A DNA stretch of 40,637 bases from Escherichia phage BUCT823, in the sequence record PQ729991.1, one strand, 5' to 3'. Positions within the stretch are counted from its first letter, which is position 1. Every line of letters begins with the position of its first letter. Positions 22,625 through 22,653 of the stretch are shown one piece after another. Both the position numbers and the translations under genes were made by a program. The notes under the pieces were generated by a model. It was given only the letters and a program-made list of their open reading frames with translations, made no database searches and was not told the DNA's origin.

Positions 22625-22653
22625 TTGCACACCCCAATATAATAGTATACTAT
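22625..22653 (+). promoter_or_regulatory. sigma70-like promoter TTGCAC-N17-TACTAT driving the plus-strand cassette; palindromic core may also fire leftward (candidate -10 TATATT, reverse complement of 22636-22641)
   Basis: hexamers read directly; same 30-nt element as 1817-1845 and 31186-31214. Confidence 0.6.

Follow-up and report, generated by a model that had tools for sequence, protein, structure and literature searches.

The controller (C) proteins of restriction-modification (R-M) systems are small XRE-family dimers that bind to dyads in their own promoter and exert delayed, concentration-dependent feedback, and the C1 repressor of phage P1 controls most transcription units of that phage from operators at many scattered promoters. 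Phage 434 Cro recognizes 14-bp dyad operators with a 5-N4-5 layout—that is, with the outer bases contacted and the centre left free (PDB 3CRO). Here, a palindromic element of Escherichia phage BUCT823, (G/T)AATAG-N4-CTATT(C/A), is compared with these systems. The whole stretch of DNA analyzed, referred to below as the window, comprises 40,637 nucleotides (sequence record PQ729991.1), and the element is embedded there in host-type promoters, among them one at 22625-22653. It is probably the operator of a phage-encoded dimeric helix-turn-helix (HTH) repressor, most likely a 71-residue 434-Cro-like protein of the XRE type (referred to as XRE; 5001-5216, minus strand).

The element itself has appeared in two genome reports. 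In Kagunavirus fBC-Eco01 it was listed as tgAATAGTa-ccTATTat-T in seven 'Phage RNAP promoter' entries obtained with PHIRE (PP1-PP7, Table S2; PMC9825357), and in Jerseyvirus SGP-C as the PHIRE element TAATAGTACCCTATTATGTT (PMC8790156). The dyad, the sigma-70 hexamers, a link to XRE, and an operator role are not mentioned in these reports, and no functional study of the element was found in the openly searchable literature. What is new here is the reading of this published element, most likely, as a set of dispersed operators of an autoregulated 434-Cro-like repressor on host-type promoters.

The window was placed by megablast in the genus Kagunavirus (Guernseyvirinae), which consists of E. coli siphophages with genomes of 40-45 kb, the nearest relatives being vB_EcoS_HSE2 and XY1 (93-95% identity); it is essentially an entire genome, circularly permuted. 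The replication block occupies ~1.8-13 kb on the plus strand, and the tail, head, and packaging blocks lie on the minus strand, separated by small plus-strand inserts. The largest open reading frames (ORFs) encode a primase-helicase, DNA polymerase A, an SNF2 helicase, a tailspike, a tail protein, a tape measure protein, a portal protein, and a terminase. No RNA polymerase was found among the 10 largest ORFs of the window or in the annotations of eight related genomes, and therefore all transcription must depend on the host RNA polymerase. Scanning of 40 window ORFs against Pfam, including the small ORFs of the early and inter-block regions, and of 10 against PHROGs yielded as DNA-binding candidates XRE, a 56-residue HTH_17 protein, a NinH-like protein (below the cut-off), and two HNH endonucleases. 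No match to a CI C-terminal/cleavage domain or an integrase was obtained in the 40 ORFs, with none annotated in the relatives, and no partition genes were recognized among the window proteins scanned.

An initial annotation, made from the letters of the window, had described a conserved palindrome of the GAATAG-N4-CTATT(C) type, and the palindrome proved to be real. The sequence GAATAGNNNNCTATT gives seven exact strand matches in the 40.6-kb window, against 0.03 expected for the 15-base form, and none of 100 shuffled sequences reached seven; the enrichment is statistically secure. Among the gapped palindromes of the window, the 14-bp core AATAG-N4-CTATT is the most frequent by a wide margin, with eight exact occurrences, at 455, 778, 1816, 5291, 7407, 10894, 22641, and 31202. 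With up to one mismatch allowed, 13 copies are found (~0.8 expected), 12 of which are non-coding and lie in or beside sigma-70-like promoters, the exception being a copy at 16818 within a tail gene. A symmetric weight matrix trained on the seven strong sites, which by construction score 21-25.5 bits, also picks up sites at 33311, 5247, 31111, 778, and 38410 with 13-18 bits; shuffled sequence gives a mean maximum of 12 bits and an extreme of 19.8. The sites at 31111-31124, 38410-38423, and 33311-33324 had been omitted from the initial annotation.

The promoters discussed below are throughout predictions from consensus sigma-70 hexamers. Class A promoters, TTGACA-N17-TATAGT, had been assigned to 5281-5309, 7397-7425, and 10884-10912 on the plus strand, and a promoter scan independently recovered all three, each with 11 of 12 consensus positions. 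The palindrome lies in their spacers: GAATAGTTCGCTATTA (5290-5305) in the first, where it also overlaps the -35 element of the predicted XRE promoter (TTCACA, 5292..5287); GAATAGTTAGCTATTA (7406-7421) in the second, upstream of the genes for a single-stranded DNA-binding protein and DNA polymerase; and TAATAGCGAGCTATTA (10893-10908), a perfect 6+6 dyad, in the third, upstream of the SNF2 helicase operon.

In class B promoters the palindrome overlaps the -10 element. All four sites proposed, of the form TTGCAC-N17-TACTAT, are present, although the first spans 456-484 rather than 456-483, so that every spacer is 17 bp, and the -35 element at 31186 reads TTGCGC. The highest score in the symmetric matrix (25.5 bits) belongs to TAATAGTATACTATTC (22640-22655), which lies over both the forward and the candidate reverse -10 elements of the promoter TTGCAC-N17-TACTAT (22625-22653, plus strand), and whose arms are conserved and centre variable among orthologues; this promoter leads to a superinfection-immunity gene (Imm_superinfect, ATG at 22696), an exonuclease gene, and an HNH gene. 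The other three putative operators of the class are GAATAGTAGCCTATTC (454-469), a perfect 6+6 dyad in the minus-strand promoter 484..456; GAATAGTAACCTATTA (1815-1830) in the minus-strand promoter 1845..1817, with a candidate reverse -10 element TATTAT at 1826-1831 directed toward the HTH_17/primase side; and TAATAGGGTACTATTC (31201-31216) in the plus-strand promoter 31186-31214. As had been pointed out, the genes on either side of three of the four sites (1817, 22625, and 31186) are divergent; site 456 is flanked by minus-strand genes. A conserved block said to follow the class B element, GGGGTGTGCAAG, is simply the reverse complement of the class B -35 element and adjoining spacer.

In a third arrangement, A(A/C)TAG-TTGA-CT(T/A)TT on the minus strand, the dyad centre and right arm form the -35 element TTGACT. 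This operator-like arrangement, with one mismatch in each copy, is seen at 31111-31124 (AATAG-TTGA-CTTTT, 16.4 bits; promoter 31119..31091) and at 38410-38423 (ACTAG-TTGA-CTATT, 13.4 bits; over the -35 element of TTGACT-N17-TATATT, 38418..38390, minus strand). Relative to the predicted starts, the 16-mer occupies ~-41 to -26, over the -35 element, at 31111 and 38410; -26 to -11, in the spacer and at the edge of the -10 element, at the class A sites 5290, 7406, and 10893; -20 to -5, over the -10 element, at the class B sites 454, 1815, 22640, and 31201; and, at the predicted XRE promoter, ~-48 to -33 (site 5290) and -3 to +13 (site 5246). Because it takes up four or more registers relative to the hexamers, the palindrome can be separated from the promoters. 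In a promoter spacer, sigma-70 depends on no particular sequence; the left arm of the class A palindrome lies in the spacer, yet is conserved between Kagunavirus and Jerseyvirus.

The Kagunavirus comparison covered 41 loci: the window itself, 37 contigs from IMG/VR, and three genomes from GenBank. In these the arms are invariant, with 30 different N4 centres among 82 distinct palindrome sites, as for a 14-bp dyad of the 434 type. The XRE-g5341 intergenic region is represented by 38 distinct versions, in which the arms, the -35 element, and the -10 element do not change and the dyad centre and the 2-bp linker between the -35 element and the operator vary freely. In the Jerseyvirus phages SE2 and wast, the class B -35 element lies 3 bp nearer the dyad, so that another hexamer, TATTAT, acts as the -10 element, which is thereby displaced by 3 bp with respect to the palindrome.

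The structural module of these phages is also found in Serratia phage Eta, whose early module is unrelated. Eta has no homologue of XRE, the HTH_17 protein, or the NinH-like protein, and no palindrome except one intragenic copy with one mismatch. The divergent promoter of the Eta tail operon carries a repeat of its own, ATTGCAACTWATTTGTTT; overlapping divergent promoters are annotated at this junction (L054, 13329-13392), and the 17-19-bp repeat occurs four times in the genome. The Eta repeat seems to be a separate instance of an element specific to its phage within the equivalent bidirectional promoter. The Cornellvirus phages FSL SP-031, St162, and Shemara have no exact AATAG-N4-CTATT and at most one near copy, which is the chance level, and carry TATTA-N6-TAATA or ATTAG-N4-GTATT elements at the same promoter positions. 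Cornellvirus and Jerseyvirus both infect Salmonella, yet their elements differ. The lack of the palindrome in Eta and the different elements of Cornellvirus therefore make a host factor or a purely structural promoter feature unlikely. The initial annotation had held that the palindrome implies a dimeric DNA-binding regulator; the varied registers, the invariant arms around a free centre, and the absence from Eta together argue in silico for a separable operator of a phage-encoded dimeric protein.

XRE, the first regulator to have been suggested, was a sound choice. The protein matches Pfam HTH_3 (PF01381) with 48.1 bits against a cut-off of 23, and its PHROGs hits are phrog_4, phrog_8, and further 'transcriptional repressor' families. 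By sequence, its closest PDB entry is 434 Cro, likewise of 71 residues (E 4.9e-7), followed by 434 repressor and P22 c2. The AlphaFold2 (AF2) model, with a predicted local distance difference test (pLDDT) score of 79, has five helices in a predicted 434-Cro-like fold; its top match in Foldseek is 2cro (E 3.4e-4; TM 0.73/0.79), with 38-41% identity to 2cro/3cro, and further fold matches include 434 repressor, SinR, HipB, C proteins, and P22 c2. The XRE gene and the first class A promoter are arranged divergently. The promoter predicted for this gene, TTCACA-N16-TAAAAT (5265-5292, minus strand; 10 of 12 positions, a consensus match only), has the -35 element within the operator 5290-5305 and the start region within a weaker one, GAATAGTACCATATTA (5246-5261, 17.3 bits), 44 bp away; the latter had been reported as a degenerate copy at 5243-5263, and does have one degenerate arm. 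In each of the three genera (Kagunavirus, Jerseyvirus, and Cornellvirus), the XRE promoter has an operator on either side, with centre-to-centre distances of 44, 55, and 63-64 bp, which are near whole helical turns, though three values carry little statistical weight. Thus, judged by consensus hexamers, putative operators lie over promoter elements both at the presumed targets and at the regulator's own gene. Among the candidates, only XRE occurs in all three genera with promoter-embedded palindromes, and its HTH is invariant among variants that are 77-100% identical, in all of which the operators are unchanged. A distant relative in IMG/VR (36% identity) has three copies of TGTAG-N4-CTACA beside its gene; this relative, on contig 2915128050_000001 (L052, ~5878-6322), has a C-terminal extension, and looks like part of a separate repressor-operator pair with the same 5-N4-5 layout.

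On this basis, the following scheme is proposed. Host sigma-70 RNA polymerase would read all of the promoters, on which the operator is superimposed in several registers, and a bound dimer would exclude or trap the polymerase. With 11 of 12 consensus positions matched and 17-bp spacers, class A promoters need no activator; since every register places the bound protein where RNA polymerase must sit, repression is predicted, as for Cro at OR/OL. From the sites, their registers and conservation, and the family and fold of XRE, we infer the binding protein, its repressing action, and the real starts. XRE, building up from its own promoter, would reduce the output of the replication, early, and divergent structural-gene promoters; in the end it would also reduce its own, by way of the operator pair, spaced 44 bp apart, on either side of the XRE promoter. 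Two back-to-back promoters would be covered by one operator at each of the three divergent class B sites, so that a single dimer would control both directions.

Several points weigh against the assignment to XRE or against the scheme as a whole. Kagunavirus and Jerseyvirus XRE proteins are only 51% identical, yet the two genera have the AATAG core in common, and the recognition helices differ at four positions (QGAINQ and QSLITH, respectively). The Jerseyvirus and Cornellvirus helices are alike (QSLITH and QSAISH) while the elements differ. As judged from these sequences, the phyletic pattern fails to single out XRE. A single protein repressing all promoters, including those directed toward the head and tail genes, would leave late-gene expression unexplained. 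Furthermore, no binding, start-site, or expression data for any Guernseyvirinae phage were found in the openly searchable literature, nor did a search there for older promoter work on MB78 yield any. A covariation of half-site and XRE recognition helix from genus to genus was considered and set aside: it is not clean, since Kagunavirus and Jerseyvirus have one core but differing helices, and the dyads of Cornellvirus (ATTAG-N4-GTATT or GTAAT) are imperfect, their -10-proximal arm being confounded with the -10 hexamer.

The assignment of the palindrome to the HTH_17 protein (2287-2457, plus strand) instead of XRE is unlikely, but is kept as a real rival because this protein fits the distribution of the AATAG element better. 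The 56-residue protein, of the excisionase/MerR-like winged-helix type, matches that distribution exactly: it is 79-100% identical within Kagunavirus and 87.5% identical in Jerseyvirus, and Cornellvirus lacks a homologue. Its N-terminal HTH is nearly invariant across the first two genera; both observations count against XRE. Its possible modes of action are those of a repressor bound in the spacer, a MerR-like remodeler of promoters, or a Q/AlpA-like factor that is loaded onto RNA polymerase at the promoter and causes read-through of downstream terminators. In the last of these modes, a parallel can be seen in Pseudomonas AlpA and lambda Q, whose elements lie in the stretch that separates the -35 from the -10 (PMC7969949), as does the class A palindrome; the class B and over--35 sites are in other registers. 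The head operon is, in addition, preceded by promoters, a structured leader of ~190 nt, and a terminator-like hairpin, resembling lambda PR'-tR'. That hairpin lies at 30892-30911; most palindrome promoters have leaders of 25-47 nt without a terminator.

The initial annotation had called this protein AlpA-like. It is a legitimate second candidate, but has no detectable relationship to Pseudomonas AlpA: it belongs to Pfam HTH_17 and not Phage_AlpA, has no PDB sequence match below E 0.4, and in Foldseek has a best E of 0.06, with AlpA not in the top 50. Its fold neighbors, all weak (E 0.06 or worse), are RacA, Xis, BldC, and MerR N-domains, with neither AlpA nor Q among them; the DNA-binding domain of RacA binds to a 14-bp palindrome, and MerR N-domains bind to promoter spacers. 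Small members of this type of fold, such as Xis and BldC, typically bind direct repeats. The three short helices predicted by the model are all that the 56 residues hold, with no evident dimerization element such as the coiled-coil helix of MerR-type regulators, and the AlpA-binding element is asymmetric (GGGACG-N5-GGTA; PMC7969949), whereas the phage site is a dyad. Class A spacers have the optimal 17 bp and not the 19-20 bp of MerR-type promoters, the promoter proximal to the HTH_17 gene (2226-2254) lacks the palindrome, and Cornellvirus has palindromic elements at the same promoter positions despite having no HTH_17 protein. Natural knock-outs, with the palindrome and only one of the two HTH proteins, were not found; XRE (567 records) and HTH_17 (442 records) co-occur throughout Kagunavirus and Jerseyvirus.

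The position of the HTH_17 gene next to the primase-helicase gene and a conserved 450-bp non-coding region suggests a replication-related role, which also counts against this protein as the binder. This region (1836-2286), which separates the HTH_17 gene from the class B site at 1817, is highly conserved at the DNA level between Kagunavirus and Jerseyvirus, with a block of ~130 bp nearly identical, and is replaced by unrelated sequence in phiEc3. An ORF at 1838-2170 was rejected as a gene: its translation is not protein-like and has no family match, and the Jerseyvirus matches are frame-shifted. The region also contains a minus-strand promoter-like site at 2210..2182 (TTGACA-N17-TAAGAT) and a terminator-like hairpin at 1948..1928, and could encode an antisense RNA of ~230 nt or hold a replication origin beside the primase operon.

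Recognition of the dyad by a factor of the host (a transcription factor or nucleoid protein) or by some other phage protein, for instance the NinH-like one (36926-37186), is considered quite improbable. The NinH-like protein is found in all three genera with 63-69% identity, but its Pfam match, at 23 bits, falls short of the 29.8-bit cut-off, and no operator adjoins its gene. Sequence alone leaves room for host factors, against which stand the differing elements of Jerseyvirus and Cornellvirus on shared Salmonella hosts and the lack of the element in Eta. To our knowledge, no E. coli regulator consensus fits the 5-N4-5 AATAG dyad, and the consensus sites of CRP, ArgR, Fur, and MntR-like host regulators have an unsuitable spacing. 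The HTH domain proposed earlier at 22925-24079 was dropped, since this gene encodes a DNA repair exonuclease (phrog_704, E 1e-150) in which no HTH was detected in the Pfam and PHROGs scans.

A further alternative, with no regulator at all, is that the dyad is a by-product of promoter symmetry—that is, of -10-like sequences on both strands serving bidirectional transcription. The three divergent class B sites do keep CC(C)CAA(T/C)ATAATAG, in which (T/C)ATAAT is read forward and TATTAT in reverse with the -11A and -7T positions paired reciprocally, at 22638-22644 (forward TATAAT 22638-22643, reverse TATTAT 22644..22639), 31199-31205 (TATAAT/TATTAT, toward the head operon), and 1825-1831. The non-divergent site 456 has CTAAGATAGAATAG instead and lacks the symmetric -10. 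In E. coli and Salmonella, symmetric -10 elements of this type give divergent starts 18 bp apart, with a range of 7-25 (Warman et al., 2021, as summarized in PMC10268837), and the palindrome arms are themselves A/T-rich and -10-like. Because the symmetric -10 is kept at the divergent sites and lacking at 456, and because SE2 has a tail-side promoter, TTGACG-N17-TATTAA, with the dyad in its spacer, reverse promoters at the three divergent class B sites are plausible; the one at 22638-22644 would face the tail operon (minus strand), in which the first gene begins at 22517. The -35 element of the SE2 reverse promoter is good, and those of Kagunavirus are weak. The reverse -10 elements had been read as TATATT or TATGTT; with the symmetric -10 at the three sites, TATTAT is more likely. 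Against the by-product reading, the symmetric -10 (TATAAT/TATTAT) lies beside the dyad centre and not on it, and at the class A sites 7406 and 10893 and the class B site 454, where there is no divergent gene, both arms are nevertheless kept across genera. The dyad is also found over -35 hexamers and at +1, and the equivalent divergent promoter of Eta works without it. Promoter symmetry is thus a very improbable source of the dyad as a whole.

The weakest reading, a promoter for a phage-encoded RNA polymerase as the fBC-Eco01 report labels its PHIRE hits, has in its favor that PHIRE ranks the element as the dominant repeated 20-mer, but is effectively refuted by the absence of a polymerase gene (10 largest ORFs; annotations of eight relatives) and by the dyad lying inside canonical sigma-70 hexamers; since these phages have no polymerase of their own, the label is a published mis-annotation.

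Other features of the window lie beside these sites. A second copy that had been called degenerate, at 778-791, in fact holds the exact 14-bp core within AAATAGTAACCTATTG (777-792); no -35 element was found nearby, and the copy is confined to the lineage of the window and HSE2. It has the 14-mer AATAGTAACCTATT in common with 1815-1830, and its counterpart in other Kagunavirus and Jerseyvirus genomes reads AAATC(C/T)(C/T)AAACTA(T/C)TG, without a dyad; the copy looks like a recent gain or gene conversion and not an ancestral operator. The one-mismatch copy TAATAGCATACTATAA (33310-33325, core 33311-33324; 17.6 bits) lies between the terminator of the portal gene and the head-morphogenesis gene. 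Directly downstream of the class B promoter at 31186, an unlisted ORF of 33 codons, MLVVISVVIAVDAVMFLWACSGIGDIDTGNGEL (31236-31337), has a good ribosome-binding site and probably encodes a small membrane protein. Right after the class A promoter at 7397, the hairpin CCGGGCAGTTCCCGG (7441-7455) in the 5' leader of the single-stranded DNA-binding protein gene has no U-tract, is kept in aligned Kagunavirus, Jerseyvirus, and Cornell-like St162 sequences, and may be a translational or stability element.

Between the promoter 31119..31091 and the spanin/head operon lies a leader of ~200 nt (30868-31086, minus strand), which ends in a terminator-like hairpin, GCCCCGCTTTATGGCGGGGC followed by TTTACTTATC (30911..30892). 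The leader is conserved between Kagunavirus and Jerseyvirus, with compensatory changes in 8 of 46 predicted pairs (five sequences), and its layout, recalling lambda PR'-6S RNA-tR', hints at attenuation or antitermination of late genes. Upstream of the same promoter, a cluster of TATTCC/GGAATA repeats (31120-31175; TATTCC-GG-TTATTCC ... GGAATAA ... TATTCGAATAG) is conserved between these genera, with copies of GAATA-N3-TATTC at the equivalent place in Cornellvirus; the repeats may be another regulatory site, or the same protein may recognize them as weak half-sites.

At operon boundaries, a family of G+C-rich hairpins has three copies (8126-8145, 13188-13207, and 24977-24996), of the forms AGGCC-N8-GGCCT and GGCCC-N6-GGGCC; at least one of these counts as a terminator when scored on either strand, and related hairpins stand at the same places in all relatives. 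HNH_3 homing-endonuclease genes at 12564-13049, with an AP2 DNA-binding domain, and at 24095-24595 belong to a group whose number and position vary among relatives, and which makes up much of the mosaic difference between the genomes. An Rfam scan of the window gave no family at the gathering score.

Kagunavirus and Jerseyvirus phages are common in collections for therapy and biocontrol of E. coli and Salmonella. The operator reading with XRE as the binding protein offers a testable wiring diagram, comprising ~10 host-type promoters, one type of operator, and an autoregulated regulator. A compact set of strong sigma-70 promoters, expected to respond to a 71-residue repressor, could serve as genetic parts. 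A safety-relevant question is whether genome-wide repression can sustain carrier states with superinfection immunity. The system would be an ordinary one if the repressor, as Cro does, merely trims early and middle transcription. It is conceivable, though rather unlikely, that a Cro-sized repressor acting on nearly every promoter silences the whole genome of an integrase-less 'strictly lytic' phage, which would then persist as an unstable, superinfection-immune episome (carrier state or pseudolysogeny), with coordinated two-way shut-off from single operators common to back-to-back promoters. In the SGP-C report, the XRE gene was called a Cro/repressor gene, and immune, lysogen-like clones were described (PMC8790156); a carrier state, if true, would account for these clones.

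Among the known systems, C proteins (C.AhdI and C.BclI, with their C-boxes) resemble XRE in being among its top fold matches. They regulate one operon and activate at low occupancy via sigma from a site next to the -35 element, whereas the phage sites lie mostly in the spacer or over the -10 element, positions that predict repression only. P1 C1 is an unrelated protein of 283 residues with an asymmetric 17-bp site, and P1 is a plasmid prophage with partition and addiction systems. Compared with symmetric bidirectional sigma-70 promoters, the phage sites add, in one direction, a consensus-like -35 element and a second -10 element, TACTAT, and the symmetric -10 is itself overlapped by a separate operator dyad. 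A CI-type repressor with a C-terminal oligomerization/cleavage domain and integration functions, which mark a lambdoid CI/Cro bistable switch together with divergence from cro, were not found in the 40 Pfam-scanned ORFs or in related-genome annotations. The system closest by sequence and fold is 434 Cro/434 repressor at OR/OL, with which the phage system has in common a 71-residue, all-helical HTH_3 protein, a 14-bp dyad with 5-bp arms and a free 4-bp centre, and operators that lie over -35 and -10 elements and are paired at the divergent promoter region of the regulator. Unlike in 434, no CI partner, integrase, or tripartite OR was found here, and the half-site is AATAG instead of ACAAG, with the recognition helix QGAINQ instead of QQSIQL. 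Moreover, whereas the operators of 434 are concentrated in one immunity region, those described here are dispersed, with 10 or more promoter regions carrying them in a phage that is considered virulent.

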